This document shows, in pieces, positions 1-58,091 of a DNA stretch of 64,000 nucleotides (within the stretch, counting starts at the first letter, position 1; each line of letters opens with the position of its first letter). The position numbers and the translations under genes are program-made. A model generated the notes under the pieces. The model did not search any database. It saw only the letters and a program-made list of their open reading frames with translations, and was not told the origin of the DNA. The stretch lies in the NCBI RefSeq assembly GCF_004010195.1, contig NC_057719.1:14134364-14198363 (forward strand), read 5' to 3'. This DNA is from Chiloscyllium plagiosum. Taxonomy: Eukaryota.

Positions 1-270
1 CAATCGGGTGTTCCCTGTCCCATATTTAATGGCTGCTCCTCGTATAAGTCCCCTTTCTTCCCCAGTAAATAGTATATTCAAAATAGACATTAACTCAGCC
101 CATGTATACAGACTGGGCCCCAAATATTGATCAATTTGTTCAGACAACCCCACTGGATCCTCAACCAGGACCTTCATTCCCTTTTTAAATGTTCTGACCT
201 CCCCACTAGTGAGGGGGGCACTTACAAACCCAATCTCTTTGTCCCCTATTGGTACCTCCAGAAGGGGATA
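1..270 (-). mobile_element. gag: Class I (gamma/epsilon-like) endogenous retrovirus gag capsid (Gag_p30-like) remnant; continues off the window edge
   Basis: Manual minus-strand translation gives PLLEVPIGDKEIGFVSAPLTSGEVRTFKKGMKVLVEDPVGLSEQIDQYLGPSLYTWAELMSILNILFTGEERGLIRGAA, which resembles the capsid N-terminus of non-mammalian class I ERV Gag (PLREVP..GFV..PL...EVR.FKK....EDP....YTW..L......LF..EER). Confidence 0.75.
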
Positions 271-1029
271 AGTCGTTACGTTCTTCCTTATTTTTTTTAA
301 AGAAATATTGCACTATTTCTAGCTCCCCATAACTTCAAACACCAATTCATGCTTGACTAACTTTTAAAGCCTGTTCCTAACTTGTAAATGTATTTATATA
401 TTTACGTTCATTTATTCAGTATTTAATATTTAAAATGTAAAATGCATACAGTTCCCAATTTTGAAATCCACTATAATCACCCAGTTTTAGTCCCTTAATT
501 TAAATCCAAAATTAGTTTTCTTAAGTAGTCCTAACCAATCGTTGCTCAATTACAATACTATAGGTCGTGAAATAATCAGAGCTGCCTTAAAAGAATTTGT
601 CTATTCAAGTTTAAAAAAAAACTCCTAACGCATGAACAATTACCGAATCCAAGGCCACAGATATTAACCATAGAATTTTGTTTTTACGACAATCTAATTT
701 GAACTGAAACTTCAACTGTCCTCCATAAATCGCTTTTATGTAAAGATAAAAGAGATTAGTTAGAAACTGATAGTAAGGCAGTCATGATCTATAAAAAGAA
801 CAGGAGTTATTCTTTTTTCTTCATAATCTCGATAGAATCCTTAACCTTAAAAGAAATCATGTTAAGTTACCATAATAAAAATCAGATTTAAAACAGTCCT
901 GGAAGTCAAGCTCCAGGGAATAAAACGCAAACATTCAATTACCAACAAACAAATGTTCATTCAAACCAAATCACAAAGGCTTAAACTTTCTACCAGCTGT
1001 ACAGCTCTTTGCATTCTCTCTCTCTCTCA

Positions 1030-4339: not shown

Positions 4340-5480
4340 CCAACCCATTCAATCTCCTTCCTATCGGAAAGATGTTGTGAAACTTGAAAGGGTTCAGAAA
4401 AGATTTACAAGGATGTTGCCAGGGTTGGAGGATCTGAGCAATAGGGAGAGGCTGAACAGGCTGGGGCTGTTTTCCCTGGACAGTCGGAGGCTGAGGGGTG
4501 ACCTTAAAGAGGTTCATAAAATTATGAGGGGCATGGATAGGGTATATAGGCAAAGTCTTTTCCCACCTTCCCGTGTGAATCTTCTTATCTGTATGTAACC
4601 AGAATGGAATGTGTTTTTTAGCCTTGCTCTGCTGTTCACATGAATGTTTATATCTGGAAAAGAGTATATCAGCTGGAAAAGTCTCCAGTTCGGTAGAGTC
4701 TGCTCCGGGGTTGCGTTTAACCGCCGAGCGTGGGTTGTTGGCAACCGCTCTACGAGAACTGACGGCTCCCAGTTCCGGTAACACGTAGAGTGAGTATAAA
4801 CCAGACCCGTTGTAAGTGCGAGACCTGGTTGTGGCGACGCTGCGGGGAATAAAACACTTATATTCTAGCAGACTCGCCTCTTGGCTGTTTGTTCTGTGTC
4901 AGACTACTTTCCTGCGAGCCTGGTCCTTGACCTTGAGAATTTTTTAAAACACCAACCCATTCAATCTCCTTCCTATCGGAAAGATGTTGTGAAACTTGAA
5001 AGGGTTCAGAAAAGATTTACAAGGATGTTGCCAGGGTTGGAGGATCTGAGCAATAGGGAGAGGCTGAACAGGCTGTGGCTGTTTTCCCTGGACAGTCGGA
5101 GGCTGAGGGGTGACCTTAAAGAGGTTCATAAAATTATGAGGGGCATGGATAGGGTATATAGGCAAAGTCTTTTCCCTGGGGTCGGGGAGTCCAGAACTAG
5201 AGGGCATAGGTTTAGGGTAAGAGGGGAAATATGTAAGAGAGATCTAAGGGGCAACTTTTTCACACAGAGGGTGATACGTGTATGGAATGAGCTGCCAGAG
5301 GAAGTGGTGGATGCAATATTTAAGAGGCATTTGGATGGGTATATGAATAGAAAGGGTTTGGAGGGATATGGGCCGGGTGCTGGCTGGCAGGTGGGACTAG
5401 ATTGGGTTGGGATATCTGGTCGGCTTGGACGGGTTGGACCGAAGGGTTTGTTTCCATGCTGTACATCTCTATGACTCTAT
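4340..5480 (+). mobile_element. CR1-clade LINE 3' end; its first 225 bp are duplicated (4340-4564 and 4952-5176) around an LTR-like insert
   Basis: ORF 4881..5474 gives RKDVVKLERVQKRFTRMLPGL...RLRGDL..V.KIMRG.DRV...FFTQRVIRVWNELPEEVV (CR1 ORF2 C-terminus) and a CTCTATGACTCTAT tail. The two 225-bp copies differ at one base that I could find. Confidence 0.9.
4594..4951 (+). mobile_element. Solo LTR-like element (~358 bp)
   Basis: Begins TGTAAC and ends AAAACA (TG...CA); TATAAA at 4795-4800 and AATAAA at 4848-4853; CpG-rich relative to its flanks. Confidence 0.6.
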
Positions 5481-7700: not shown

Positions 7701-7706
7701 TTTATT
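7701..7706 (-). terminator. Polyadenylation signal AATAAA of the protease-like gene
   Basis: TTTATT on + at 7701-7706, about 290 nt downstream of the TAG stop at 7993-7995. Confidence 0.55.
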
Positions 7707-7992
7707 AATTGAATATTCACATTATTTCAAAAACAAAACAAGCATTCTGTTGCCGTTGCCTCTGTTTAATCTTTTTTGCTGCAAATAAAACTGACAATTG
7801 CGTTTAGCCTGACGTCTTTGTCCCGTTGTGAGGAGACCCACAGTTCTGAGGATGAGGAAGCGAGGGGTCCCAAATCGTGAGGGAGTGTGAGGAAATCAGA
7901 GTTTGTGGAAATTTGGAGGCAAATAAGATTCCATTCAGTCTGAAGCTCACCCCCACCCTGACAAATGGTGGATGTTTAGTGGAAGCTGCATT

Positions 7993-8837
7993 CTAAGAAT
8001 GTGTGGCAATGACCGAGTGTATCCAATGGAGGTAGCTGGACACGCGGGTGTACACCCCGTAGCGTCCTGGCCGTGCGCATCCAGTCCCCCAGGAGACAAT
8101 ACCCATCAGGTACCAGGCTCCCGAAGGCTGGTGAGGGACTAGGAAGCCCCCACCGGTGTCCCCACCACATGCATCCCTCCCGCCCTCTGGCAAACCAGCG
8201 CAGAACATGTTGTTGGTGACAGGCGGGCGCAAACCCCCAATTCGTGCCTCCTGGAAAGCCTGCTGGCAGTGCTGCTGTCTGACCAAAGGCAGTGTAACGT
8301 AGCGTAGCCGGTCGCGAAGGAAGAACCCCTCCTCGATTCCCCAGCCGGCCACAAAGCCCACAGTCCCTGGTTGGAGGAGGTCACCCTCCTTGTATCCCCC
8401 GGCCCCGCGTAGGGCAGGCAAACAGGCAGGCATAGCCCCCTCCTCCACTCCCTCGCTCCCGTTCCTCCTCAGCTTGATCAGGGCAATGTCATTGTCGAAA
8501 TCGTGCAGCTCCTCCACGAACCCTGGGTGCACCACAATCTTCTCGATCTCACGGCTCTTCCCTGCCAGGAGTGCCCGCAGGTTGGTGCTTCTCCCTGCCT
8601 GGCATGTCCGGATCCGGGTGACGTTGAGTTGGTGGGACAGCTCCGTCCGGGGGCCCCCTTTCGGGTAGAAGACATGGGCGGCTGTCAGCACCCAGCCCCC
8701 GCCGATCAGGGTGCCCCCAGCCCTCCCCCGACCGCTGGCCACCACCAGCACGTGCCACGGGAAGCTCCCCTCCTCTGCCAGCCTACCACCCAGGATCCGC
8801 TGCACCGTTGTCGCTGGGTTTGAAGGCCGCCCACAAA
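7993..8837 (-). CDS. Last coding exon: intron-less trypsin-fold (S1A) protease domain of the C1r/C1s/MASP/haptoglobin family, with catalytic Ser replaced by Thr
   Basis: Acceptor ctcgactttcacag, then phase-1 TT TGT GGG CGG = (V)CGRPSNPATTVQR|ILGG..GSFPW..WVLTAAHVFYPK..FDNDIALIKL..PACLP..GFVAGWG..LRYVTLPLV..NMFCAG..DACGGDTGG..GIVSWG.GC..YGVYTRV..YLHWI. The histidine-loop cysteines (C42/C58) are absent and the domain is in one exon, both hallmarks of C1r/C1s/MASP2/MASP3/Hp. Confidence 0.93.
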
Positions 8838-9959
8838 CTGTGAAAGTCGAGGAGAAGCAGAACGAGAGTCAGCGGCTGCGGTATGGAAAGATAGAAAGAA
8901 TTAGGGAGAGGGGGAATAAAAGCAGAGCTAGGGTGGTAGGTGTCTGGAATGTGTTGGCAGCAGAGGTTAATACAGGCATGGTGGATTCATTTAAGATGCA
9001 TCTGGACAGGTGCATGAGTAGGTGGGGAGCAGAGGGATACAAATGCTTAGGAATTGGGTGACAGGTTTAGACAGTAGATTTGGATCGGCTCAGGCTTGGA
9101 GGGCCATAAGGCCTGTTCCTGGGCTGTAAAGTTTCTTTGTTCTTTGTTATTTTCATCAGGTGTCATTACACAGGACTTGAGCACCTTTTCCCTATGTTTT
9201 CCCCCACCCTCATAGACCTTGTTATCACATGGGCTGCTACCACACACCACTCATTCTCAACCTCTAACAGTCCCCGCTGGCATAGTTGCCTTCCAAGCAG
9301 TTAACCTGAGTTCAATTCCTGACCATCACAAGGTTCCCATTTTCTTGTGGTGCTGAACTTTTTAACTTATTTCTTTATTTTTCTATTTCTCTAACTAAGA
9401 TTTTATAGCTAGATACATTGTACCTAAGATGGCACTTGTGGGGTGACATTGTACACTTTTCACTGTACTCTTGTACCCTGTGCAAGATAATAAAATGTAA
9501 ATCCAGAATCTAGTGGCTATTCTTTCCCCTAGACACACCGTTATCCACTCCTTTTTCTGTCCAACTGTTATTCTCTCTCTTTGAACTCTATCTCTACCTG
9601 TTGTTTACCCTCTTCCCTGCCACCCCACATCTCGTCTTCTGCATAAAACCATCCTTTTCCTTGCTGTCATCAGTTCCGAGACAGAGTCACTGGATCTGAA
9701 ACGTTTACTCTGATTTCTCTCCATACATGCTGCCAGACCTGCTGAGATTTTCCAGCAATTTCTGTTATTGTTTCAGATTTCTAACATCTGTCGTTCTTTC
9801 AGTTTTGTCCTTAACATCCTTGCTTGGATGAGAGCTCAGTCCAGTAGGAATCTTAGTTCGGCACAAAATTTATTTTGACATGAATTGTTGACTTGGCTTG
9901 ATTGACATCTGTAAGCTGTTAACCTAAGTTACATCTGAACCCGTGACTAGGAGGAATGT

Positions 9960-10060
9960 GCAGCAAGTCAAGAGTGTGGTGCTGGAAAAGCACAGCGGGT
10001 CAGGCAGCATCCAGTGAGCAGGAAAATCGATGTTTCAGGCATAAACCTTTCGTCAGGAAT
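9960..10060 (-). mobile_element. Penelope-like terminal repeat fragment with hammerhead motif
   Basis: Minus strand CTGACGA(10050-10056)-AAGGT-TTAT-GCCT-GAAA-CATC. Confidence 0.6.
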
Positions 10061-10469
10061 TTGCAGCAAGTAAGCATCACTATAAAGTTGACTGGGATGG
10101 TTATCCAGCAGTCAGCATCACTGTACAGCCAAGCGAGAGGTTGAGGGATGCACTAAAGCTGTTATCAGGGTGCAGTGGGGCAAGACCACTGTCTGAGGTC
10201 TTTCTGCTGAACTTAAGTGGGGATCTGTTCAGTTATCAGACTCTAGATGCCTCAAATGTACAGGTCATTCTGCTATAACACGTTTTGTTAATGTGAATTC
10301 ACTATAATGTGGTTGATGATTTGGGGACAATGTTTCTATCGTGTGAACTTACAAAGTGTGTTTTAGTTTTAACGTGATTCTGGACCCATTTGTTTAAATG
10401 GTGCTGCTATTACATGATTTTCTTATAACACGGGATTGCACAAGATTAGACCTACTGCATTACAGCAGA

Positions 10470-10826
10470 GGGGCTGTAGGTCATTCCTGAAGTAGGTCAT
10501 TCCTGAAGAAGGAGAAAGTGAGGTCTGCAGATGCTGGAGATCAGAGCCGGAGATGTGTTGCTGGAAAAGCGCAGCAGGTCAGGCAGCATCCAGGGAACAG
10601 GAGAATCGACGTTTCGGGCATAAGCGGGCTTATGCCTGAAACGTCGATTCTCCTGTTCCCTGGATGTTGCCTGACCTGCTGCGCTTTTCCAGCAACACAT
10701 TCCTGAAGAAAGGCTTATGCCCGAAATGTCGATTCTCCTGTTCCCTGGATGCTGCCTGACCTGCTGTGCTTTTCCAGCAACACATTTTCAGCTCTGATCT
10801 CCAGCATCTGCAGACCTCACTTTCTC
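10470..10826. mobile_element. Fold-back Penelope-like terminal-repeat insertion (inverted plus tandem copies) carrying hammerhead motifs
   Basis: GGAGAAAGTGAGGTCTGCAGATGCTGGAGATCAGAGC (from 10511) recurs as its reverse complement ending at 10827; inner inversion point about 10625; CTGAAGA..GAAA at 10703-10726; flanked by CTGCATTACAGCAGA at 10455-10469 and 10827-10841. Confidence 0.8.
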
Positions 10827-11369
10827 CTGCATTACAGCAGAACCGAATGCATGTAAATATAATCTTATAATAGTAAGAAATGCCTTTGGTTTGTTTATTG
10901 GATATAGTCCAACTCCAGTGTTTGATTTGTCTTCTTCATACGCTAATGCAAAGAACCAAACTGATTTAGTAAATATGCATTTTTTTATGAATAAAGTATA
11001 TGTTTGGAAAAAACACTGGGAGTAGTGTGCAGCAGTCAATATCACTATGCAGCTGGGAGAGTGGATCTGATGGGGACATCAGGCCATGAGTAAGGATAAG
11101 AGTTTTCTAGTCTGTAGTCTGTAAGGAATCCAGTCGGAGTGCAGCCAACCTGGTGGTAAACCTGGCAGGAGTGGAGCACCCCTGAGTGTCAATGTGGTGA
11201 GACCCAGCTCAAGCTCAGTCTGAGCAATAGTTAAACCCTAACGGAAAGCGCGCTCAAATTCAAATGACTGACCAAAATACCAAAAGTGCAAAGTCCTTGT
11301 CCACTTTAAGAGAAACAGTAAAAGTTCTAGCTTTTTAAAACAAAACTCAATTCATTTTCTGAAAGTAAA

Positions 11370-13200
11370 GCAGAAATTTCTGGAGAAACTGAGAATTAGC
11401 AGCTCGAATCCAGCAAAAACTGGTTGCAGCTCAGAAAGAGTGGTGTTTGTGCTGAAGTCAGCTGGCCTCAGTGGGTGGGGAGGTGAGGTTAGGGCAGAGG
11501 AGGCGAAGTCCAGAGAGAGAGAGTGAGAAATGAAAGGGATATGTACACAAGGAGATTATGGATAGCAGAAGGAAAGCTGAATAAGAGATAATCAGAGCTA
11601 AGAGTGAGAAATTGAGTGAGCTATATTCAAAATAACCTGTACAATGTGATAATGGGTCTAGGACTATGTGAGAATGGGTGACTATGCTAAAAACAATCCC
11701 ATATCATAATAGAACAGGGTGTGGGGTCGGTTAAAAAACTCACAGAAGTTTGGAAAGGAATCCCCAGGCCCTAAAGTTATTAAACTCAGCGTTGAGTTCT
11801 GGAGGCTATGGAAAATGAGATGTTGTTCTTCGAGCTTGTGGTGAGGCACCTTTTGGCTCTGCAGCAGGCCCCTGACAGAAATGTTGGTGTGTGAACAGAG
11901 TGGTGTGTTGAAGTGGCAGGCAACTTTTCAGGAACATTTCTGCGACAGAATGTAGGTGTTCTGCAAAGCGGCCACCCAGTTTGTCTGCCCAGTCTAGAGG
12001 AGTCCACATTGCAAGCAGAGAATACACGAGAGCAGATTGAGAGAAGTTCAGGTAAACATAGAACATGGAACATTACAGCGCAGTACAGGCCCTTCAGCCC
12101 TCGATGTTGCGCTGACCTGTGGAACCAACCTGAAGCCTATCTATCCTACACTGTTCCATGTTCATCCATTTATTTATCCAATGACCATTTAAATACCCTT
12201 AGAGTTGGTGAATCTACTACTGTTGCAGGCAGAGCATTCGACACACTTGCTACTCTCTGAGTAAAGAAACTACCTCTAACATCTGTCCTATATCTATCAC
12301 CCCTCAATTTAAAGCTTTGTCCCCTCATGCTAACTATCATCAACTGAGGAAAACAGGTCTCACTGTCCACCCTATCTAACCCTCTGATTATTTTATATGT
12401 TTCAGTTAAGTCACCTCTCAACCATCTTCTCTCTAATGAAAACAGCCTCAAGTCCCTCAGACTTTCCTCATAAGACCTTCCATCCATACCAGGCGACATC
12501 CTGGTAAATCGCCTAGTAAAGCACTGTTCCACCTGGAAGCTGTGTCTGGGGCCTTGGATACTGAGAAGGGAGGAAGTAAATAGGCAGGCATTACAGCTTC
12601 TGCAATTGCAGGGGAAGGTGTCGTAAGTATGTAGGGAGGTATTGACAGTGGAGAAGTGGACCAAGGTATCCCGGAGGGAATGGTTCTTGCAGAAAGCTGA
12701 CAAACGAGGGGAGGGAATGTGTGTCCCATGGCATCCCATTGAAGGTGACAGAAATGGCGGCTTACAATCTTCAGATGCAGAGGCTGGTGGTTTGGGAAGT
12801 CAGGACCAGGGGAACGCTATCATTGTTGTGGGAGGGAAGAGAAGGATTGAGGGCAGAACTGCGGGAGATTGGTCTGACATGGCTAAGGGCTCTGTCAGCA
12901 ATGGTGGCAGGGATCTTCAGTTGAGGAAGAAGGTGGATGTTTCTGAGGCTGACCGGTGGAAGGTTGCATCATCAGATGTAACGGAGATGGAAAGACCAGA
13001 GGAATGGGATGTAGTCCTTACAGGAAGGAGGGTGTTTGATGTATCGTCCAGGTAACTGTGGGCGTCAGTGGATTTGGAGTGGATCTCAGTGGTCAGCCTA
13101 TCTCCATCATGAAAACAGAGATGTCAAGGAAGAGAAGAGAGGAGTCAGATGGACCAGGTGAAGGAGAGCGCGGGTTGGAAATTCAAAGCAAAATTGTTTC
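11370..13200 (-). mobile_element. Degraded Penelope-like element (RT C-terminus, Cys-rich linker, GIY-YIG endonuclease remnants), interrupted by a CR1
   Basis: Minus-strand LSAFCKNHSLRDTLV..TFPCNCRSCNAC.FT....IQGPRHSFQVEQCFT (about 12520-12710) and GGRFAEHLHSV (about 11950) match the Penelope linker and GIY-YIG region. Confidence 0.7.
12058..12514 (-). mobile_element. CR1-clade LINE 3' end inserted in the Penelope element
   Basis: RRFTRMSPGM..SYEE.LR.L.LFSLERRWLRGDL..FFTQRV in ORF 12170..12739; TGTTCTATGTT-type tail at about 12060. Confidence 0.85.
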
Positions 13201-13229
13201 AATTAATTTTCTACTTAGCTTAAGCTTAT

Positions 13230-13450
13230 CATAGAATCCCTACAGAGTGGAAGCAGGCCATCCTGCCCATCGAGTCCACACCAACCCTCCAAAGAGCAAC
13301 CCATGTAGACCCCAACCCTACCCCATAACCCCACATTTCCCATGGATAACCCACCTAGCCTGCACATGCCAGGACACTATGAGCAATTTAGCAACTACCT
13401 AAGCTGCATATCTTTGGACTGTGGAAGGAAACTGGCACAGATACAGGGAG
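13230..13450 (-). mobile_element. HE1/V-SINE-like SINE fragment
   Basis: Matches the 3' half of the SINE family repeated throughout the window (ATAGAATCCCTACAG..GGAAGCAGGCC..CCACCTAGCCTGCAC..TCTTTGGACTGTGG). Confidence 0.7.
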
Positions 13451-13779
13451 AACAGATGCTGCCTGATCTGCTGTGCTTTCCCAGCAGCAAACTCTCGACT
13501 TTTATCTCCAGCATCTGCAGTCTGCACTTTCTCTTCTCAATAGTAAAGGGTACAGGCATGTGTTTCTGCAGCCACAGGCGTGAGTCCAGGATGGTGGGGT
13601 CAAGGATGTCACTGAGCGGAGTATTTAGATGTGCATTTGCAATGCCAAGGAATACAGGGCCAGCAGACAAGTGCTGGAAAATAGGAGTAGAATAGTTACA
13701 TGCTTGTTTTTGACTGGCACGGAGGACTGAAGGACCTTTTTCTGTGCTGTGGACTCTATGACAATAAGGACTGCAAAGC

Positions 13780-16700
13780 ATTCTGAAGGAGAGTGAACAA
13801 CCAGAAGTTATGGGTCATATTGTTACCAATGACATAGAAAGAGAGAGGAGCTGCTGCATCAGGGAGCTAGGGAAATTAAAAAGCAGCACCTCACAGGTTT
13901 TAATCTCTGGATTACTCCAAGTGAAATATTCTAATGAGCATAGGAATAAGCAGATGGACCAAGTTAATGCGAGGCTGAAGAGTTGCTGCAGGAGGGAAGG
14001 ATTTTGATTCATAGATCACAGGATCCATATCTAGGGGCCTGTACAGGTCTGACAGGTAGCTCCTACACTGAAACAGGGCTAACATCCAGGCAGGGGGGTT
14101 TGCCAGTGCTGTTGGTGAGACTTTAAAGTAATTTGGCAAGAGAAAGGGATATGGAGTAGAGGTACAATAAGAGAAGATGCACAGACTATTATAAAAAAAA
14201 CAGAAACAAGTCAGTATAAATCCCAGTCTGACTATTTAGTCATGTTAAGACATAGGGGAGTTCAGCAAGGGTGGTTTATGTTTACTTTAATGTAAGAGTC
14301 ATGTGAGTAAGGCAGATTAACACATGGCGATATGAGGTATCATCATTATCGCAGAGACATGGATGAGGGAGGGGTCAGATTAGGCAAACAAAAAGGGAGT
14401 AATGTAAACGAGGAGGTGTCACTATATTGATCAAGGAGTCAATTACAGCAACATGAAGGGATAATATCTCAGAAAGCTACTCGATTGTGGCCATATTTTG
14501 GAACTTTAAAACAAGAAATGCCTAGTCATATTGTTGGGAGTGATCTGTGGGCCCTCAAACAGTCAGGGAGAGGTCAAAAGTTAGATCTATAGGCAAGTTT
14601 CAGACAACTGTCAAAGTAATACAGTGACAATAGTTGCAGACTTCAATTTTACCCCCATATTAAATGGGATAGGTAATGCCACGATAGCTCGAGCAGGCTA
14701 TAGGGCTGCTCTCCCACTACAGAAAGAGAGAAATGACAAGGACAGTCCATCATGGTAACCTCAGCCGATAGACAAAGTAGGAAAGGCTGAGAGGGGAGAG
14801 CCTGTTAAGTCCTACATGACACATGGCTGTGTTGTACTTAATTTTAGGGAATGAAGTTGGGCATGTGGTAGATGTGGAAGCATATTGGTACTGTAACATG
14901 GTAAATGTTAAAGTAATTGTGGATAAAGACAAATATGGACCAGAAATAAAGATTCTGAATTTGGGGAAGGCTGTTTTTTAATATAGTAAGACAAAAGTCA
15001 GCCAAAGTGGCCTGGAAGCAATTACTTCTGTGAAAATCTACATTCAAGCCTTTCAAAAATGGGAGAGTGAGAGTGAAGGAACAACATATGAAGAGTGAGA
15101 CCATAGATTCTAGAGAACCCTGGATATCAAGGTTTGTACCAGATAGGATAATTCACGAAACAGGAAGCTGATGGTAGATTCCAGAGGCTCAGAATGCCAG
15201 AAGCTCTCGAGATGCAGGTGGTTACTTAAAAAAAGAAATTAGGAAAGTGAAGAGACGGGAATGAGGAAACACTGCAGGGTAAATTAGCTAAATATCGTAG
15301 AGTCATAGAGGTGTACAGCATGAAAATAGACCCTTCAGTACAACTCGTTCATGCTGACCAGATATCGTAAACTAATCTAGTCCCATTCACCAGCATTTCG
15401 TCCATATGCTTCTAAACCCTTTCTATCTGGATGTCTTTTAAATGTTGTATTTGTACCAGCCTCCATCACTTTCTCTGGCAGCTCATTCCATACTTGCACC
15501 ATCCTCTGTGTGAAAAGGTTGTGCCTTAGATCACTTTTAAATCTTTCCCCTCTCACCTTAAACCTATGTCCCTAGTTCGGGACACCCTGACATTGGGAAA
15601 AAAAGCCTTGGCTGTTCACCCTATGCGTGGCCCTCATGATTTTATGAATCTCTCTAAGGTTACCCCTTGGCTTCTGATGCTTCAGGGAAAGGAGCCCCAG
15701 CTTATTCAGCCTCTCCCTATAGCTCAAACCCTTCAACCCTGGCAACATCCTTGTAAATCTTTTCTGAACACTTTCAAGTTTCACAACATCCTTCCAAAGC
15801 AGGAAGACCAGAATTGAATACAATACTCCAAAACCAATATCCTGTACAGCTGCAACATGACCTCCCAACTCCTACACTCAATGCACTGACCAAGAAAGGA
15901 AAGCATACCAAATGCCTTCTTCATTATCCTGCCTACCTGGGACTCCACTCTCAATAAACTATGAACCTACACTGTTAGGTCTCTTTGTTCAGCAAACTCC
16001 CCAGAACCTTATCATTAGTTTTCAGAACTAGAAGCAATGCACCCAAGGGTGTTGTGGGAGGGAAGGGAGGAGATTGCAGAGACATTGACATTAAGTTACA
16101 AATCTTCTCAGGAGACAAGACATGTGCTAGAGAACTGTAATCGATTCCTTGATCAATATTGTAATATCTCTTTTAGACCACTCATTGTTTTATTTTTGTT
16201 TTATCATGTGGTATGTTTGCTCAAGAAGGGAAATATGGATGAACCAGGGAGCGACAGGCTATTGAGTCTAACATTTATGGTAGGAAAATGATTGGTAAAA
16301 AAAGAATCTGAGGGTCAGAATTAATCTCCACTGGGACCAGCAAAGATTCATCAAGGACAGTCAGCAAAGCTTTGTAAGGTGGAGAGCATGTCTGACAGGC
16401 TTGATTGAATGTTTTGAGGAGGTGACTAGTTGTGTAGATGAAGGTGGTGCAGTGGATTTAGGTTACGTGATCTCTAGTGAGGCTTTTGATGTGTTCTTGC
16501 ATGGGAGACTGGTCAAGTCGGTAAGAGTCAATGGGATTCAGAGCAATTTAGGAAATTAGGTCAAGAATTTGCTTAATTCAAATCCAGGATTCCCTCAAGG
16601 TAAAATTGCATGTTAAGTCAGTAGTTAGGAAGGCAAATGCAATGTTTGCATTTATTTTGAGAAGACTTGAAGATAAAAGCAGGAATATACTTCTGAGGCC

Positions 16701-17520
16701 CTATATAGCTCTGGTCAGACCATATTGTGTTCAGTTTTGGACCTCATATCTCAGGAAGGATGTACTGGACCTGGAATGGTTTCAGTGGAGGTTCATGAGG
16801 AATGAAAAGTTTAATGTATGAGGAATATTTGTGGACTCTGGGTCTATACTGGATGAAGTTTAGAAGGTGGAAGGGGATCTAATTGAAACTTACAGAATAC
16901 AAAATGGCTATGACAGAGTGGATGCTAGAAGATGTTTCCATTGGTAGGAGAGACTAGGACTGCCTTAGAGTAAAGGAATACCTTTTAAAATGGAGATAAG
17001 GAGAAACTTCTTCACCCAGACAGTGGACAATCTCTGGAATTCACTGCTACAGAAGGCTGTGGAGGTCAGGTCATTGAGTACATTTAAGACATGGATCAAG
17101 GGTTACAGGGAGAATGGGGTTGAGAAACGTATCAGCCATGGTTGAATGGCAGGGAAGATTCAATGGGCTGAATGGCCTAGTTTCTGCTCCTTTGTCTTGT
17201 AGTCTTATGGTCTTATAACTACTTCCCCTTAGAGCAACCAATAACCAGTGGGCAGAGAGTTGTGGTAAAGGGCAGAAGGTTGAGAGGAGTGTAAAGAGCA
17301 ATATTTCACCCAGAGGATGGTTGGTATCTGGAACTCACTGACCAAAAGGATGGTAGTGCTGGGAGCTGTCACAACATTTCCAAAGTCTTTAGATGGTCCC
17401 TTAAATTGCCATAGCATAAGTGGCTATGTACTGAAAAATGGGACTCGAATAGATAGATACTTTCTGACAGTTGTGGAGAAGATTAGCCAAGGCACCAGTT
17501 TCCATGAGGTGCATCACAAT
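13780..17520 (+). mobile_element. Old, fragmented CR1 LINE(s) with nested insertions
   Basis: Decayed CR1 peptides (MHPRVLWEGREEIAE, KANAMFAFILR..LYIALVRP-like, FFTQ..LWNSL) in several frames with many stops. Confidence 0.7.
15300..16020 (-). mobile_element. CR1-clade LINE 3' portion, antisense and nested
   Basis: ORF 15572..15868 WKDVVKLESVQKRFTRMLPGL; AGTCATAGAG tail (reverse of CTCTATGACT) at about 15300. Confidence 0.85.
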
Positions 17521-17909
17521 GGCTCTAACATATGAAATAGGAACAGGAGGAAGCCGTTCGGTCCCTCTAATCTGCTTCATCATTCAATAAGATTATTATT
17601 GATATGATTGTGCCTCAACACCACAATACTTGCTACTCCAAATAACGTTTGACTGCCTTGTTAGTCCAGAAGTAGATGTTCACCTTAAGAATATTCAATG
17701 ATCCCACCTTGACCCCACCATGACCATCAATTTAAAAATCTCATCTCAGTTTTAAACTGGAGACCTCTTATTTCCAAAATACCTTCCCTCATTCTTGTCT
17801 GTCCCACAACAGGAAAACTCCTTTCATTTCTCTCTATGATGTCTTTCTGCCAATGCATCAAGACTTACTTGGATAAGTTTAAATATGGTGAAATGCTTGA
17901 ATCCCCTAC

Positions 17910-18146
17910 TGGGCACACAGAGGGTAGTACGTATATGGAATGAGCTGCCAGAGGAAGTGGTGGAGGCTGGTACAATTACTATATTTAAGAGGCATTTGGA
18001 TGGGTATATGAATAGGAAGGGTTTGGAGGGATATAGGCCAGGTGCTGGCAGGTGGGACTAGATTGGGTTGGGATATCTGGTCGGCATGGATGGGTTGGAT
18101 CGAAGGGTCTGTTTCCATGCTGTACATCTCTATGACTCTATGACTT
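17910..18146 (+). mobile_element. CR1-clade LINE 3' end
   Basis: Near-identical to 5265-5480; ends in a (CTCTATGA)n tail. Confidence 0.85.
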
Positions 18147-18289
18147 TATGTTGCGACTTTAGGGCTCACATTTGTGTAAGATTACAGGAACAGTAGATTT
18201 TTTTTCTCAGAATATTTCTGAATTGGGGAGGGGGGGGGATTTCTCAGCAGTTCCATAGCTGACCATCAATATTATTTGGCACAATGGTT

Positions 18290-19040
18290 ATGTATATAAT
18301 GCGTACAGAGTATATGACAATACTGTGGCTTTCAGAGACGTCCTTTGCCTTGGTTTTGTTTGAAGAAATTTTGATCCAGAGGTACAAAGCTGCCTCCTCC
18401 AAGGCAATAAAGTAAGTAGCTTGTGAGGCCTTGGGTTTTTTTTTTTCTAAAAGTTAAGACAATAGAAGCAGCCTGTTGAAGAAATTTTGATCCAGAGGTA
18501 CAAAGCTGCCTCCTCCAAGGCAATAAAGTAAGTAGCTTGTGAGGCCTTGGGTTTTTTTTTTCTAAAAGTTAAGACAATAGAAGCAGCCTGAATGGGTGGT
18601 GCCAGGCTCCCACACAACCAAGATTTGAATTTAGCTTTCAGGAGTTGTTGGGGTTTGAAGCTGGCTGTGGAAGCTGCCATATCCTTCTCCCAACCAGAAT
18701 TTTCTCTTGGATTGGAGAAACATCTCATTGAGATCATTTATTTTATTGAATTTGCCTTTGCCGGGGTGTTTTTATGGCGTATTAATATTTTGGAACAGTT
18801 GCTATTTTGTAGTTAAATAATCTATTACTCTGTTACATTTTCCAATAGAGTTAAAGTCATATCAATTCTTCTTTCTTTTGTTTGTATTTTAACTGTAGGG
18901 TATGAATAAAGCCGAGTGGAATAACAAATCGAATTACACGTGAAACACAATCCCTTACACTTGCCTTTAAGTAAGATAAAAGTTAGAGTCGAGGCTATCT
19001 CCTTGATATATTTGAAGGGGATTTGATTTGGTTCATTTGT
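18290..19040. mobile_element. LTR-like repeat containing a ~115-bp tandem duplication (about 18360-18475 and 18476-18590)
   Basis: The duplication is read directly. The LTR call rests only on resemblance (AATAAA at about 18905, overall layout); boundaries are approximate. Confidence 0.45.
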
Positions 19041-19479
19041 TACTCATGACTATGGGTAGTGGGTGGGGGCAGAATTGGTGTTGCCTTGGCTTTGAATCCA
19101 AATTGGTGCGGGGAGGTGACGGGGATGATACGGTGGTATGAGGAATGAGAGTCAAAGAGCTTATTGTCTTCATTATAAATGGGACAGAGTCTCAGAGTAA
19201 AAGTCAAACTCTCCAAAATTCAATGTCGTCAGGTCAAAATTCTGGAATTCCCTCCCTAATAGCACTCCGTGTCTACCTACAACATATATTGCAATGGTTC
19301 AAGACGGCAGCTCATCACACCCTTTTCAAGGGTCATGGGAAATAGGCAATAAATGCTGGACCAGCCAGCAATCCTTTCATCCCATGAGTGATCTTAAAAA
19401 AAGGCAGCCCACCTCACCACTTCTGAGTTGAAATGGGGTGTTGACTCCATCCTACACCCATCCACAATCCACTAAAACA

Positions 19480-19829
19480 GAAACTCAAAGACAGAAATGA
19501 ACAAAAACAGAGACAGAGAGTAAAATAAAGACTGGAAGGAAGAGAAAGTTAGGGACAGAAAAAGACTGAGTGGGGAAGAGGGTCAAGGAGAGAGTGTGAG
19601 AAATGAGAAAGACAGGGAGACAAAGAGAGAGAGAGAGATTAAGAGGTAAAACCAGAAGGTTGATAGAGACAGAGAGAGAGAAAAAAATAAAATAAAATGG
19701 GAAAGAGAATTGGGGTGTGTGAGATAATAAGGGAACAGGCAGAGAGAGACATGGAGAGATGGACAGTCTGGACAGAAACTCTTGGAAAGTGAGAGAGAGG
19801 AAGAAACTCAAAGAGAGAAAGAGAGAGCT

Positions 19830-19860
<31 letters not shown>

Positions 19861-19897
19861 CAGAGAGAGAGACACAGAGAGAGGGAAAGAGAGAGAA
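19480..19897. repeat. GA-rich low-complexity tract / (GA)n microsatellite at the start of the protease-gene intron
   Basis: Long purine-rich run with (GA)n immediately after the donor at 19902-19901. Confidence 0.9.
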
Positions 19898-19902
19898 ATT
19901 AC

Positions 19903-20125
19903 CTTTTACTCCAGAGGTTCCATTTCTTGTGTTATCAGTGATTCCTTTGCACACTGTTTCTTTGGCACTCTGCTCTGTGACCCAGGGTTTCGTGGTAGTC
20001 TGGAGTTCCTTGGTTGGTGGGCCCTCTGAGCTGCTGGTTGGTGACTGGGATATAGAATGGCCACAAAGCAAAGCAAGCACCAAAACCAAGAGCCTAGAAG
20101 GGATAGCACAGAGTGGTGACTGCAT
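19903..20125 (-). CDS. Predicted first coding exon of the protease-like gene: signal peptide plus Ser/Thr/Pro-rich stalk
   Basis: ATG at 20125-20123 gives MQSPLCAIPSRLLVLVLALLCGHSIS-QSPTSSSEGPPTKELQTTTKPWVTEQSAKETVCKGITDNTRNGTSGVK. It ends at the donor AAG|GTAATT in phase 1, matching the phase-1 acceptor at 8837 (G+TT = Val of VCGRP). A pyrimidine-rich acceptor ctcccatcaccctgcaccccaacctag ends at 20143. Confidence 0.72.
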
Positions 20126-21037
20126 ACAATTCACAGAGACAGCTAGGTTGGGGTGCAGGGTGATGGGAGCTTCAGGGCTTCCAGCTGACCTCAGGACCAT
20201 GCACCCCAGTTGCTAAGGCCATTGCAGGATTCTCACTTGATAGTTTGCATACTACAGCATGGAAATTAAACCCAAATCCCTCTCAGTTAGCATTTATGTA
20301 TGTTAAACCATTTGTTCCTCAGGGAGAATGCTATTATCACTCAGATGCTTGGGGATTGGGCTTGGCCTTTGGATCTCAGTTGGAAACAAAAGCCAATGTT
20401 TGAGACCCAAGGAGGTGTTTTGGCCGCACGTTTCACCTCTGGGATGAATTAAGGCTGAAGCCAGGAGGAGATCAGCCTTTTATTGGGACCCATGGACAAT
20501 TGGAAGTGAGAGGGAGGGTCCAGTCAGCCATTAAAGCTCAGCCTGTAGCTTCGGGTGCACAAAGAATGCCCTAGGTGCCAGCACAAATCAGGGTTACACA
20601 TCCCCAACACATCAGCGGCTTGCTAGATCAGTCAGACCATGTGTAGGCACCTCCTACTCTGATCTATTGCAATGTAAATGTTTATCTGTCATCTATTTAT
20701 CTGACTGCAATGTTTGTCCTTTTAACGTTATTTCTTATTTTCCAACTTATGCTATAAATCACTGTTTGGTAATGTGACTATTATTTTCTTTATTTCTCTA
20801 TTTTGTATCTAAGATTTGAATCTCAGTACCTTTGTACCTAAGATGGCGCTGTGAGGGGAGACATTTTAAACTGTACTCCTGAACTTCTGTACTTGAGCAC
20901 ACTTGACAATAAACCTAAGTCCAATCCTAATTCTAATTGCAAGTGTCCAACATACCTCATGGTCCTTCAGCAAGAGCAGATCTGCTTTCTGTCGTAGAAT
21001 GAGCAACACACACTAACACAAATCAAACTAGAACAGC

Positions 21038-27703: not shown

Positions 27704-29354
27704 TCAGTATATGCCTACTCCAGCAATATGTTGGCAGGTAATTCCCAATTTGACATTTCTAGCCTCAGGATGAAATAAAACTACGTGTGAACGCTGTTGC
27801 TTTAAGATGAGCAAAGGACATACATAAGAAAAGGCCACAATGAGCTCCTGAGCTAGGTTAGAGTTCCCAGGGTTGGCCGTGGACTTTTGAGCCAAGAACT
27901 TCCATGCTGAGGGGAAATAAAATGAACTGTTTCTCAACTGAGTATGTGAAAGCCATAAATTGCCACATTATAAACTGCAAAACAAACATAAGAATAACAA
28001 ACATGAAAAAGAAAGTCTGAATACTGTGGAGTTACAGCCAGTTTTATTGCCAAGGTTGAAAGTGACAAATTTGTGAGTGTTGGAGTGGTAGACTTTCTTG
28101 CCAACAGCCCCATCTTTGACCAGAGACAGTGTCTATAGGCAATGTCAAAACCACATCAAGTGACTAGCCAATGGAGTAATTGATATAATAATTGTAACAA
28201 GAAGACAGACATAACAGGTTCAATCAGGACCCAGCTAATGCCAGGAAGTGACGATTTTTTCAAGGAAACAATATGCCATCTTATGGGAAAATCTGGTACT
28301 GCAGATGCACTGAGCTGCAAGAAATGTGTCCATTATCAACTGAGCAAGCATAACATTGGAAACTCCAGTGGATATCCAGTATTTTCCCCAGGAAACACTG
28401 ATCCCCACTCCACCTCTGGTATTTTCTTTAATTTGCTAACCTATACTTGATTTGCCTCATTAATCAATTTTTTTTTAAAAAAGAGTCTTGCATATCGGTA
28501 CAGAAATCAGATTAAAACTACTTTTATCAGGTTAAAATAACTTTTACACAATGCAAATTGTGTAAAAGTTTGCTTGAACACCTTTGTGTCAAGATCCCAG
28601 ACATGGAGAATGTGTGGGAGCAGTATTTCACTGTGGCTGGAATACTCCTGGGGAAACAGCCAGTGTTTTTTAGCAGCTGCTTTTTATTTTGCAAATAATG
28701 CAGACTTGAAAATGTTCAGCATTTGTAGGTTGCATGACAACTGATAAATAAAAATCATATATCAACCAATACCAGTTCCCAAGTTATCAGACAGATGGCA
28801 AAGATGCTGAATGAGAAGGAATGATTAAAGTAGATGATTCCCTGCTCAAAAAGGAGTAAGCTTTTGTTTTGCACTTGGTGTCTGTTTGCGCAAAGGACCA
28901 ATAAAGTCAAATCTCTGTGCAAATCTGATTATTAGGCAATGTGATGTAAATAGTTTAAAGATCCATTTAATATACCTGTAGAATTATGCATAGTGGTAAT
29001 GTAAAAACAATGTCTAAATATTGTAGTTTTGTGAATAAAATGGAATAACCAATTGCAACAAGATGCAGTTCCTAACAATGAATATACTAAGGAACAATTA
29101 AGATTCTCATGCAAGTCATTATATGAGGTTTCAACTGTGTGGATAATTAAGGAGTAATTTTTCTTCTTTCTGAAAAAGGTAACATGCTGCGAAAGATTTT
29201 TCCTTTGCATACATCAGGAAAGATGATATAACTTGTGCTCTGGAGGTAGAGGTCCTTGTGTATATTTGAGGCTGAGACAAATTCTTGATCAGTTGAGGAA
29301 CCAAGAGTTACAGGGAAGGGGCAGGAAATTCGGAGTCAGGAATGTCAAATCAAC

Positions 29355-30750
29355 CAGGAATGGCAAATGTAATTCCTCTCTTCAAGAAAGGAAATAGGGA
29401 AATCCCTGGCAATTACAGACCAGTAAGTCTCACGTCTGTCGTCTGCAAGGTTAGAGAAAGGATTTTGAGGCATAGGATTTATGACCATCTGGAAGAGCAT
29501 GGCTTGATTAAATGCAGTCAACACGGCTTTGTGAGGGGCAGGTCATGCCTCACAAACCTTATCGAGTTCTTTGAGGATGTGACTAGAAACGTTGATGAGG
29601 GTCGAGCTGTGGATGTGGTGTATATGGACTTCAGCAAGGCATTTGATAAGGTTCCCCATGGTAGGCTCATTCAGAAGGTCAGGTGGAATGGGATACAGGG
29701 GATCTCAGCTGTCTGGATACAGAATTGGCTGGCCAACAGAAGACAGCGAGTGGTAGTAGAAGGAAAATATTCTGCCTGGAAGTCAGTGGCGAGTGGTGTT
29801 CCACAGGGCTCTGTCCTTGGGCTTCTACTGTTTGTAATTTTTATTAATGACTTGGATGAGGGGATTGAAGGATGGGCCAGCAAGTTTGCAGACGATACAA
29901 AGGTTGGCTGTTGTAGGCTGCAGCGGGACATTGACAGGATGCAGAGATGGGCTGAGAGTTGGCAGATGGAGTTCAACCTGGATAAATGTGAGGTGATGCA
30001 TTTTGGAAGGTCGAATTTGAAAGCTGAGTACAGGATTAAGGATAGGATTCTTGGAAGTGTAGATGAACAGAGGGATCTTGGGGTGCAGGTACATAGATCC
30101 CTTAAAATGGCCACCCAAGTAGACAGGGTTGTTAAGAAAGCATATGGTGTTTTGGCTTTCATTAACAGGGGGATTGAGTTTAAGAGTCATGAGATCTTGT
30201 TGCAGCTCTATAAAGCTTTGGTTAGACCGCACTTGGAATACTGCGTCCAGTTCTGGTTGCCCTATTATAAGAAAGATGTGGATGCTTTGGAGAGGGTTCA
30301 GAGGAGGTTTACCAGGATGCTGCCTGGACTGGAGGGCTTATCTTATGAAGAGAGGTTGACTGAGCTCGGACCTTTTGCATTGGAGAAAAGGAGGAGGAGA
30401 GGGGACCTAATTGAGGTATACAAGATAATGAGAGGCATAGATAGTCTCTGGCTATCGACTCTATTTCTCAGGGCAGAAATGGCTAACAGGAGGGATCATA
30501 GTTTTAAGCTGTTTGGAGGAAAGTATAGAGGGGATGTCAGAGGCGGGTTCTTTACACAGAGTTGAGAGAGCATGGAATGCGTTGCCAGCAGCAGTTGTGG
30601 AAGCAAGGTCATTGGGGACATTTAAGAGACTGCTGAACATGCATATGATTACAGAAATTTGAGGGTGCATACATGAGGATCAATGGTCGGCACAACATTG
30701 TGGGCTGAAGGGACTGTTCTGTGCTGTACTGTTCTATGTTCTATGTTCTA
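29355..30750 (+). mobile_element. Relatively young 5'-truncated CR1-clade LINE with an open RT frame
   Basis: 407-aa ORF 29342..30565: NYRPVSLTS, QHGFVRGRSCLTNL, VYMDFSKAFDKV, GVPQGSVLG, FADDTK, HLEYCVQFW; tail (TGTTCTA)n at about 30730-30750. Confidence 0.95.
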
Positions 30751-37628: not shown

Positions 37629-37789
37629 TTACTGATGTTCTGTTTCTATTTCTGGTATACAGTCATTAGGATACTGGGAAAGCACAAAGCCTGGTAAACA
37701 GATGCACTTATATGATCCTTCTGTGTTCTCACAGCTTGCATTCCGGCAGAGTGGTATGCTATCACTCAGATCCTCACATTCATTAATAT
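37629..37789 (-). CDS. LTBP2: LTBP2-like, final coding exon (last calcium-binding EGF domain) with stop codon
   Basis: Acceptor ttgcatttcag, then (D)INECEDLSDSIPLCRNASCENTEGSYKCICLPGFVLSQYPNDCIPEIETEHQ-TAA (37631-37629). Confidence 0.9.
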
Positions 37790-37916
37790 CTGAAATGCAA
37801 GAATCACAACAGAGTCATTTCAATTCATATGGGTAGCAGTAGGTCATAGAAACGTCTCCAGCTTGCTCTGTTATTCAATTAGTTCATAGCTGATCATCTA
37901 CCTCAACTTCACCTCA

Positions 37917-44090: not shown

Positions 44091-45757
44091 GTTTAATATT
44101 ATTTGTGAAAAGTTGTAACTTGTGCAAACTTTTATTCTTGCCTCCAATTCTAAAAAAAAACTTTGCGTCTTATCCTGTTTTCATTCTTTCACTGGCCATA
44201 TGATTTGCAATCAGAAATCAGGGCAGGGTAATCCCACCTTGATGATTTAGATTCAGACTTCTTTCTGAAGTTTTCACCACACTACTGTCAGGTTAGAATA
44301 ATGATAACTTTTCAACCTTTGTCCAAAAACAGGAAACCATCCTCCGTGGAGTGGGGAGAGTGAGGACTGCAGATGCTGGAGGTCAGAGTCAAAAACTGTG
44401 GTGCTGGAAAAACACAGCAGGTCAGGCAGCATCCTAGGAGCTGGAGAGTTGACGTTTTGGGCATACGCCCTTCATCGGGGGGAGAGAGAGAGAGAGACAG
44501 AGAGACAGAGAGACAGACAGACAGACACAGTGTGTGTGAGGACGTTGCCAAATTGGAGGGTTGGATATTGGATGAGGTGGGGAGGGAGGGGAGATTTGGA
44601 AACTAGTGAAGTTGATATTGATGCCGTGTGGTTGAACGGTCCCAAGGCAGAGGATGAGGCATTCTTCCTCCAGCAACAGAGTTAACGTTTTGGGTTCAGT
44701 GACCCTTTTTCAGAACTTCTGAACTTAAGTCTGCTTTCTCTCCACAGATGCTGCCAGACCTGTGTTTGTTTTGGACTTCCAGCACCCGCAGTTCTTTGTC
44801 TTTCTTTAACCAGAGGTTACAAGCTGGTTAAACAGTGTTCAAGGTTTTAACAGCTTGAGTTTTATTCCAAATCACACCTCGTAAAACATCAACAGACTGC
44901 TTACTTGTTCCCCATATACCTAATCATGTTCTCATTCAATAATCCCCTAATTACCATTAAATATCAATTGTTTCCAAGTTCCATTTGGTTTTTAGGTATC
45001 CCTACTGGATGAAAATAGTTCTCAATTCATACATTGACCATGAAAACAAAACCTTGAGCTGACATCAACTCTCTCAATCTTATCAACCCAATATAGTCAT
45101 CAACCAACAGTGAATTTCTTTTTAAGAATTAATTTGTTGCAATATGCAGTAAGATGAATCCTTTGGTCCTTTGACCTAGGGATAACGCATTAAAGTCTAT
45201 TCCATGTAGATAACTAGATTTATTTCCATTGGTTTGAGATTCTGGAATGAGCAGGGGACATAGTCTTAGAATATGGCCAGACAATTCTGGACAGGTATTA
45301 TGAAGTACTTCTCCATACACAGGCTAGTAGAGGTTTGGAACTGACTTCCACAAATGGTGATGGATGCTGGGTCACTTGTTATTTTTAAATCTGAGGTAGA
45401 GTTTCTTTTGTTAAACAAAAGGATATGGGCCAAAGATGGGTATATGGAGTTAGACCATAGATCAGCTATGATCTGACTGAATGGTGGAACAGGCTCCAGG
45501 GTCTGAATGGCCTACTTCTGTTCCTATATTCCTAAAACAGCATCTACCCCATAGGGAAGTATCAGCAGTGATACTAATGAGATGTCTAGTCCTTTATCGG
45601 GGAATTGATAACTCAGAAAGCAGAACTGATAAGAATGACAGTGCAATCTGCATCTCTCACTCCAAATAAGCCTGAATATTTAGTGGTGAAGGGTTGAGCT
45701 GTTAAGAAAGAGGAGGAAGGATGGACCAAAGATCACAGAAAGCAAAAGGTCACTCAC

Positions 45758-45907
45758 CTACACAAGTCATTTTTGTCATGTCGAGCTCAAAACCATCAAA
45801 ACAATCACAGGTGTATCCTTCCTGCACTCGAACACATCGCCCATTTTCACAGCCATTCAGAATCCCACACTCCTCTGCTTGTAAGCCTTCAAAACTACTG
45901 GAACGAT
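45758..45907 (-). CDS. LTBP2: LTBP2-like exon (penultimate EGF domain)
   Basis: ttttctcag|(D)[49 protein letters not shown]|gtgagt; 150 nt, phase 1-1. [23 protein letters not shown] is the LTBP2-type sequence. Confidence 0.95.
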
Positions 45908-46279
45908 CTGAGAAAATCAAATCAAATATTGGGATATACCACACAACTAAAGCAGGTTCAGGTGTTTCTGGTTCGACAATAGTACTTTCCATTGATCTAC
46001 CTCAGACCACAGGCTGTAATTTTCGATGGAACTGGAACATGGATGCGTCCATGTATACCATCAATGATCCATGCCAGTTCTGTGAAGGTTGCATCCTGTT
46101 AAAAGATCAAAGTGCCCTCACAATCCTGCCAAGGAAAACTGGTGATACAATTGGCAAACAATGAGGACCCTGTGATGTGGTCACTGCACTGACAAAATGA
46201 ATGAGGTTGTCAATTCTCCAGTTCATGGTTTGAAGGAAAACAATGTTAAAAGCTGTCATACATTTTTTCTATGTTCAAC

Positions 46280-58000: not shown

Positions 58001-58091
58001 CCCTTTGAAGAGGGCAATGGATCCGCTTAAATTTCTTGCTAATATAGAATTATTAATATATCGTAGAAATAGCTTCAAAACTTATATTTAC

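Follow-up and report, generated by a model that had tools for sequence, protein, structure and literature searches.

A short shark gene of the C1r/C1s/MASP/haptoglobin group that encodes a signal peptide, a stalk and a single-exon protease domain with threonine at the catalytic serine position

The window analyzed here, a 64,000-nucleotide stretch of the bamboo shark Chiloscyllium plagiosum (contig NC_057719.1, positions 14,134,364 to 14,198,363), carries on its minus strand a short gene of the C1r/C1s/MASP/haptoglobin group whose product combines a signal peptide, a stalk and a protease domain. The gene has three coding exons (a slash below marks a splice or cleavage site). Exon 1 ends with only five coding nucleotides at 20956..20960, the ATG and the first two bases of Arg2 (gaccATGAG/gtatgt), and its 5' untranslated region extends upstream of the ATG (20960-20958) to coordinates beyond 20960. 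The donor GTATGT at 20955-20950 opens intron 1, which spans 862 nt (20094..20955) from the GT at 20955-20954 to a pyrimidine tract and AG at 20095-20094 (cccttctAG/G). Exon 2, with 191 nt (19903..20093), encodes the remaining signal peptide and the 48-residue stalk and closes with a phase-1 donor (AAAG/gtaat). Intron 2 follows with 11,065 nt (8838..19902). It holds interspersed repeats, and neither a CUB or Sushi exon nor any credible EGF exon was found in it. The coding part of exon 3, with 845 nt (7993..8837), begins behind an acceptor at 8837 (tttcacAG/TT) and contains the linker with Cys67 (VCGRP), the Arg79/Ile80 activation site (VQR/ILGG) and the S1 domain, and ends in the TAG stop codon (7995-7993). 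One open reading frame (ORF) of 291 residues from stop to stop, at 7993..8868 of the minus strand, thus covers both the linker and the complete protease domain. Past the stop by 220-290 nt, a pattern scan for AATAAA/ATTAAA places putative minus-strand polyadenylation signals at 7706..7775, with hexamers starting at 7770 and 7706.

Joined at canonical splice sites, 20960-20956, 20093-19903 and 8837-7993 (5 + 191 + 845 nt) form an uninterrupted reading frame of 346 codons, and the predicted product matches RefSeq XP_043553037.1 (P0377), titled "complement C1r subcomponent-like [Chiloscyllium plagiosum]", at every one of its 346 positions. This identity to the RefSeq model shows that the gene structure, as predicted from the DNA, is one of three exons. 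The initial annotation had joined an exon at 20125-19903 to the acceptor at 8837 in a protein of 355 residues. The acceptor is found where it was placed, and the 19903/8837 join is matched collinearly in tblastn by the 346-residue protein of Chiloscyllium punctatum (P0002), whose residues 2-65 align to 20095-19904 with 96.9% identity and whose residues 61-346 align to 8853-7996 with 95.8% identity. The upstream frame does stay open, over 74 codons up to a phase-1 donor, but the true exon starts at 20093, the protein has 346 residues from three coding exons and the 355-residue model equals no listed protein. The difference lies at the start, where the codon preceding RLLVLV is TCT, within the pyrimidine tract that ends in AG. 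Because TCT precedes RLLVLV and gaccATGAG/GTATGT stands about 860 nt upstream, the true start would be the mini-exon, and the ATG at 20125-20123 is very probably intronic, within intron 1. The N terminus produced by the join of 20956 to 20093, MRLLVLVL, is the same in P0377 and P0002, and MRL is N-terminal in 10 of the 12 tabulated family sequences (in one with an extra Met ahead).

The precursor has a mass of 37.1 kDa, and the mature protein is basic, with a calculated isoelectric point (pI) of 9.2. Trypsin is the sole Pfam domain of the full RefSeq product (residues 80-338); the match to PF00089 covers profile positions 1-220 of 220 with an E value of 4.8e-48 and 164 bits against a cut-off of 20.6, which agrees with the earlier proposal of a complete protease domain in one exon and a single frame (7993-8868). 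As that annotation also described, the stalk of about 48 residues is rich in Ser, Thr and Pro (20 of 48); it carries one N-glycosylation motif, NGT at N59. Among the orthologs, 1 of 47 stalk columns is invariant versus 102 of 252 in the protease domain. An AlphaFold model built on a 30-sequence alignment reached a mean predicted local distance difference test (pLDDT) value of 75.3 and a predicted template modeling score of 0.76. The protease domain lies mostly at pLDDT 80-96, and residues 1-63 are below 50 with no secondary structure. The top Foldseek matches of the model are the catalytic domains of MASP-2, C1r and kallikrein (E values about 1e-22; TM by target 0.70-0.89), and model and matches together indicate the two-barrel S1 fold. 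Among solved structures in the PDB, the window protein matches C1r best (165 bits), ahead of MASP-2 (161) and haptoglobin (146). The protein also has two extra cysteines, Cys50 in the exon 2 stalk (ETVCKG) and Cys144 in an exon 3 protease loop (RTCQAG), which occur in the alignment only in the window sequence and two other orectolobiform proteins (P0002 and P0003) and might be joined in an additional disulfide or link two molecules.

The modules that accompany the protease domain in C1r, C1s and the MASPs were sought within the gene and around it. Neither a Sushi nor a CUB match was obtained with Pfam at E ≤ 1 among the 145 minus-strand ORFs of at least 25 residues in intron 2, where 8 of the 145 had some Pfam match, all under the curated cut-offs. 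An EGF match at 8994-9089 was rejected as chance, given its E value of 0.035 and 14.8 bits against a cut-off of 21.5 among 145 ORFs, in a 32-residue frame whose cysteines are too few for an EGF module. The 134 further ORFs of at least 75 residues in the window likewise gave no Sushi or CUB match, only two reverse-transcriptase and two EGF matches, and tblastn with 15 multidomain C1r/C1s/MASP/factor X queries found no CUB or CCP match across the 64 kb. The Pfam scan and tblastn therefore agree with the initial annotation, which had seen no CUB, CCP or EGF exon in the intron. In intron 2, which the initial annotation had described as mostly recognisable repeats, 2002 of the 11,065 bases have a second copy inside the window.

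The active site keeps two members of the Ser-His-Asp triad. His120 (chymotrypsin His57; TAAHV, 8674..8676) and Asp182 (Asp102; DNDIAL, 8488..8490), both on the minus strand, are invariant in 12 of 12 orthologs, those whose sequences cover the two positions. The third position, aligned to Ser195 of human C1r, is Thr293, encoded by ACC at 8155..8157 of the minus strand within GDTGG, and Thr195 is present in all 13 family sequences. Also invariant in the 12 orthologs are Asp194, Gly193, Asp189, Ser214 and Ala42. The residue after His57, position 58, is Val in the bamboo shark in place of the usual Cys; across the orthologs it is Val in four, Ile in four, Thr in three and Ala in one, and never Cys. 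The domain therefore has no Cys42-Cys58 disulfide, which bears out the earlier remark that the histidine loop is missing its disulfide. The activation site, R/ILGG or R/IIGG, is kept in all 11 sequences that span it. The ACC codon is one change from AGC and also one change from TCC; two paralogs in this genome, L002 and L004, use AGC and AGT, respectively. Threonine at 195 also occurs in P0346, a protein of 511 residues that falls in the tree with teleost C1r/C1s-like proteins and carries GDTGS with His57 replaced (TAANN), so the change from Ser to Thr would have arisen more than once in the C1r/C1s family.

The consequences of such a change are described in engineered enzymes. According to a passage of PMC8695361, thrombin and trypsin are greatly compromised by S195T, owing to clashes of Thr with the Cys42-Cys58 disulfide and the substrate; the double change C42A/C58A gives thrombin S195T back some of its activity, and Thr is undocumented as a nucleophile in the trypsin family. 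In an excerpt of PMC3835919, the triple change C42A, C58A/V and S195T is cited, from Baird et al. 2006, as turning trypsin into a threonine protease, and part of the text of PMC3344824 reports TSP50 as a natural His/Asp/Thr enzyme of the S1 fold. Judged by its residues, the shark protein naturally carries the engineered combination. We consider the short family probably catalytically weak or inactive. Thr195, which was absent from the initial annotation, is the most unusual feature of the protein and worth following up.

Close relatives with Trypsin as the sole Pfam domain comprise 13 sequences, namely those of 12 named shark species and the record P0011. The species are C. plagiosum, C. punctatum, Stegostoma tigrinum, Rhincodon typus, Carcharodon carcharias, Cetorhinus maximus, Scyliorhinus canicula, S. 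torazame (a fragment), Mustelus asterias, Heterodontus francisci, Pristiophorus japonicus and Heptranchias perlo (a fused model), and complete records are 336-346 residues long. Their automatic names vary, with C1r-like given six times, MASP2-like twice, haptoglobin-like three times and haptoglobin-related-like once. The gene is already in databases under these muddled names and appears uncharacterized; a literature search turned up no published account of a shark protein of this protease-only, C1r-like kind with Thr195, which does not prove that there is none. Hence the earlier description of a distinct, possibly undescribed family member holds in that the family forms a separate clade, and must be tempered by the identical RefSeq model and the relatives in 12 species. 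No ray or skate ortholog was among the matches listed, although ray C1r-like proteins were there, and this does not prove absence. In the Heptranchias model (P0124), the end of a C1r-like protease exon is fused to the short gene on a contig of 40,212 bases, so the C1r-like and short genes stand in tandem there. This tandem makes plausible, and does not show, the proposal of the initial annotation that a protease exon was fused to a new leader exon. A C1r-like gene was not located in the present assembly, where the best match of the Stegostoma C1r-like query is the window gene itself (45%).

This genome contains four other single-exon paralogs, L002-L005, whose best PDB matches are C1s-like for L002 (233 bits), L003 (190 bits) and L005 (212 bits) and MASP-3 for L004 (416 bits). 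In addition, a 1-kb contig of 70% GC (G000:C426:1-1000, locus L014; C426 below) carries a minus-strand ORF at 214..999, of 261 codons and open at its 5' end, with haptoglobins (132 bits) ahead of C1r (117 bits) as its best PDB matches. Like human haptoglobin, it contains the stretch MPICLP..DYA.EVGRVGYV.GWG and has lost the SWG motif, and His replaces the catalytic Ser (GDHGA). The C426 ORF is likely to be the true haptoglobin protease-like exon of this shark, on an unplaced fragment. Because C426 is the better haptoglobin candidate, the short gene would not be haptoglobin despite its haptoglobin-like junction. The initial annotation had compared that junction (..GSFPW) to haptoglobin and TAAHVFYPK to C1r; the cleavage-site context is near-identical to that of haptoglobin without making the gene haptoglobin, and the motif TAAH.xYPK is common with C1r.

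To place the short family, a maximum-likelihood tree of 59 protease domains (tree A) was rooted on factor X, with the partial rows P0124 domain 1 and L007 dropped. The short shark sequences form their own clade (99/93), inside the C1r/C1s/MASP/haptoglobin subgroup, and the ingroup is split from factor X at 100/100. With the C426 ORF added (tree B; 60 rows, 270 columns), the short clade is recovered at 100/99 and groups with cartilaginous-fish C1r-like proteins and bony-vertebrate C1r at 91/88. The protease-domain phylogeny, which the initial annotation had put forward as a check, thus returned a separate clade grouped with C1r. The free tree keeps C426, with a branch length of 2.0, and the short clade apart. 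Forcing the short clade together with cartilaginous-fish C1r-like proteins made the likelihood slightly better (+1.14), and this union is not rejected by the approximately unbiased (AU) test (p = 0.56). Bony-vertebrate haptoglobins were absent from the best 120 and the best 150 homology matches, and a search with residues 11-50, in which 22 candidates were scored, returned four shark proteins and no bony-vertebrate haptoglobin. Look-ups in the ESM Atlas gave no discrimination. Overall, the analysis supports a distinct member of the C1r/C1s/MASP/haptoglobin group with a signal peptide, an unstructured stalk and a single-exon protease domain.

With somewhat better than even confidence, we read the short shark gene as a protease-domain-only offshoot of the C1r branch, conserved across sharks, whose product is secreted, acts as a weak or inactive binder and is not the haptoglobin ortholog. 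It is highly improbable that the protease exon is instead the last exon of a conventional CUB-EGF-CUB-CCP-CCP gene and that the short form is an artefact of gene prediction. Calcium-binding EGF-like exons do lie upstream on the same strand at 37656-37790, 45753-46001, 58078-58518 and 59025-59174 (about 37.7, 45.8, 58.2 and 59.1 kb). However, their best solved-structure match is LTBP1 (73 bits, E 1.5e-19), followed by fibrillin-1, they are unaccompanied by CUB or Sushi exons, and by these matches they are part of a neighbouring gene and not of the protease gene. Moreover, 10 complete short proteins of about 308-346 residues, taken from independent genome annotations, share the leader and stalk exon in conserved, collinear form, and the exon phases of the three-exon model are compatible. 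An explanation that we consider unlikely, but by no means negligible, is that the short gene is the cartilaginous-fish haptoglobin of Redmond et al. 2018 (J Immunol 201:2483), reportedly a MASP-family protein that is abundant in plasma and whose haemoglobin binding is species-specific, and is hence already known. Its junction (NP..VQRILGG...GSFPW) is close to that of human haptoglobin, and the window protein has the highest score to human haptoglobin among the five single-exon paralogs, with 146 bits versus 123 for L003 and 120 for L005, L002 and L004 scoring too low to be listed (at most roughly 120 bits). Teleost haptoglobin consists of a leader and a protease-like domain without CCP, and the architecture of the short protein fits this. 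In addition, part of PMC9207270 describes haptoglobin as abundant in shark plasma.

Several observations count against our reading. The window protein outscores the C426 ORF against human haptoglobin (146 versus 132 bits), and NCBI names the S. canicula, Carcharodon and Cetorhinus proteins haptoglobin-like and that of Stegostoma haptoglobin-related protein-like (4 of 12). The base of tree A is an unresolved four-way split among the short family, the cartilaginous-fish C1r-like proteins, bony-vertebrate C1r and a group of MASP-2, MASP-3 and C1s, and the grouping with C1r in tree B is moderate, not strong. The haptoglobin proxy in the tree is the C426 ORF alone, with no bony-vertebrate haptoglobin, and a clade of the short family with that ORF is not rejected by the AU test (log-likelihood difference 1.42, p = 0.43). 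Finally, that the whole catalytic machinery has stayed intact for so long, hundreds of millions of years, would be expected of an active enzyme more than of a dead binder. Against the identity with haptoglobin stand the best solved-structure matches of the window protein, which are C1r and MASP-2, the placement of the short family with C1r in the tree, and the C426 locus, which has haptoglobin as its best match together with haptoglobin-specific motifs. Nurse-shark haptoglobin (H9LEQ0) is given as 48 kDa in part of the supplement of PMC10707392, compared with 37.1 kDa for the window precursor; it was not among the close homologs listed, nor was any nurse-shark protein, in a database that included UniRef. 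In the same portion of that source, catshark mucus yielded two peptides counted as unique to H9LEQ0, and the UniProt entries of the short family are unlisted. On balance, the short shark protein is probably not haptoglobin.

The conserved catalytic residues raise the alternative of an active protease with a threonine nucleophile (His57/Asp102/Thr195), that is, a free C1r-derived enzyme outside the C1 and MBL complexes, which we regard as unlikely but as a serious contender. In such an enzyme, the missing Cys42-Cys58 would remove the clash with the Thr methyl group, and the protein, activated at Arg79/Ile80, would cut after Arg or Lys in a plasma substrate. The conservation of the catalytic residues, Asp189, Gly193, Asp194, Ser214 and the R/I activation site in the orthologs is consistent with this, as is the parallel between Ala42 with Val, Ile, Thr or Ala at 58 and the engineered C42A, C58A/V, S195T changes that PMC3835919 cites in part. 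The partial rescue of thrombin S195T by C42A/C58A in a passage of PMC8695361 and the TSP50 precedent in part of PMC3344824 point the same way. However, that passage of PMC8695361 rates the engineered rescue as marginal for amide substrates, notes a further clash of the Thr methyl group, with the substrate as it enters, and calls Thr undocumented as a trypsin-family nucleophile. Furthermore, non-catalytic S1 proteins also conserve such positions, for structural reasons.

If the short gene is an offshoot of the C1r branch that encodes a binder, its product may work as follows. The 18-residue signal peptide would direct secretion and be followed by the fast-evolving, unstructured 48-residue stalk and then the linker. 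By analogy with C1r and haptoglobin, cleavage at the retained Arg79/Ile80 could generate two chains, with Cys67 tethering the small N-terminal chain to the protease-like chain. The result would be a secreted, N-glycosylated, basic two-chain plasma protein in which an S1-fold module has very low or no turnover. Most likely it would not serve as a cascade protease but bind a partner, be it an Arg/Lys-type ligand, a serpin or another protease; haptoglobin and other dead S1 proteins act by binding. In C1r, C1s and the MASPs, CUB-EGF modules provide docking on C1q or MBL, and CCP modules help to hold substrates. Because it is without CUB-EGF modules, the short protein presumably cannot join C1q/MBL complexes, and the absence of docking on C1q or MBL is a reasonable inference by analogy.

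Comparing the short protein with known systems, the closest likeness is to C1r. Both have a single-exon protease domain without a His-loop disulfide, Asp189, the TAAH.xYPK motif and the CG.P..P...QR/I(I/L)GG activation linker, C1r is the best PDB match (165 bits) and the two group in the tree (91/88). However, the shark protein is without CUB1-EGF-CUB2-CCP1-CCP2, has Thr for Ser195 and a pI of 9.2, and in tree B forms a separate clade (100/99) beside C1r and not nested in it. Like haptoglobin, it is short and secreted, with a small N-terminal chain and a protease-like chain, a near-identical ..VQR/ILGG..GSFPW context and an altered nucleophile. Human haptoglobin, in contrast, has Ala at the serine position (GDAGS), and His57 is lost in mammalian haptoglobin, whereas the shark protein has Thr195 and retains His57; moreover, the EVGRVGYV stretch and the SWG loss seen in the C426 ORF are not found in it. 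Mammalian C1RL (C1r-LP) is likewise a truncated C1r paralog that has lost most N-terminal modules. However, the C1RL matches carry CUB, two C1RL-like sequences (P0036 and P0038) keep GDSGG, and in the tree the C1RL representative falls within mammalian C1r, which implies an origin independent of the shark gene. Threonine trypsin and thrombin S195T, as described in parts of PMC3835919 and PMC8695361, resemble the bamboo shark protein in Thr195 and in the absence of the 42-58 disulfide, with Ala42 and Val58, but are engineered, whereas the shark protein is natural and conserved across sharks. TSP50/PRSS50, in an excerpt of PMC3344824, is a natural S1-fold protein with a His/Asp/Thr triad; it belongs to an unrelated S1 branch, is intracellular or membrane-associated and testis-specific in mammals, and the likeness is in the triad alone.

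Should the C1r-offshoot reading be correct, cartilaginous fishes made their own protease-only C1r derivative, in parallel to haptoglobin and mammalian C1r-LP, which would add a case of complement proteases becoming free plasma proteins. It would also clear up the annotation of one family that is now called C1r-like, MASP2-like or haptoglobin-like depending on the species, the likelier haptoglobin ortholog being on a GC-rich contig of 1 kb. The invariant Thr195, with the other catalytic residues kept, offers a natural test of Ser versus Thr in the trypsin fold, a question so far addressed mostly via engineered mutants. If the short protein is the published shark haptoglobin, the finding becomes an ordinary one.

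Two other protease genes in the genome also show changes at the catalytic positions. In the C1s-like gene at G000:C41:19674000-19713999 (L015-L018), CUB and two CCP exons precede the protease exon (L005 1465..2277, plus strand), in which His57 and Asp102 are kept and Ser195 is replaced by Ala (GDAGG, codon GCT); it is apparently a full-length but dead C1s-type protease. A further C1s-like protease exon, at G000:C48:4275730-4276485 (L003 1489..2277, plus strand), lies 26 kb from the L002 C1s-like gene. It has lost both His57 (LTSATC) and Ser195 (GDGGG), has Cys at 42 and 58, which is unusual for the subgroup, and belongs to a conserved clade (100/100) whose other members are the second domains in fused models of Rhincodon, Mustelus and Heptranchias. 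A single-exon S1-like ORF of 368 codons (G000:C26:2378000-2387999; L019 4390..5496, minus strand) was set aside as unrelated, with 29% identity, a His-loop cysteine (TAAHC), HLDSGG and a hydrophobic C-terminal tail.

Elsewhere in the window, plus-strand ORFs at 29297-30562 (422 residues) and 59642-60193 (184 residues) match RVT_1 with E values of 6e-31 and 4e-10, respectively, and are retroelement remnants. An interspersed repeat of about 720 bp at 15295-16017, within intron 2, has further copies at 4978-5479 and 60650-61375 and an inverted one at 17914-18147. It has very many copies in the genome at about 80% identity; the comparison of intron 2 with the genome gave 87,942 first-look candidates, 39 of which were scored, and all 39 scored places match this repeat. 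Intron 2 also contains, at 18360-18590, a tandem duplication of a 116-bp unit with 99% identity.

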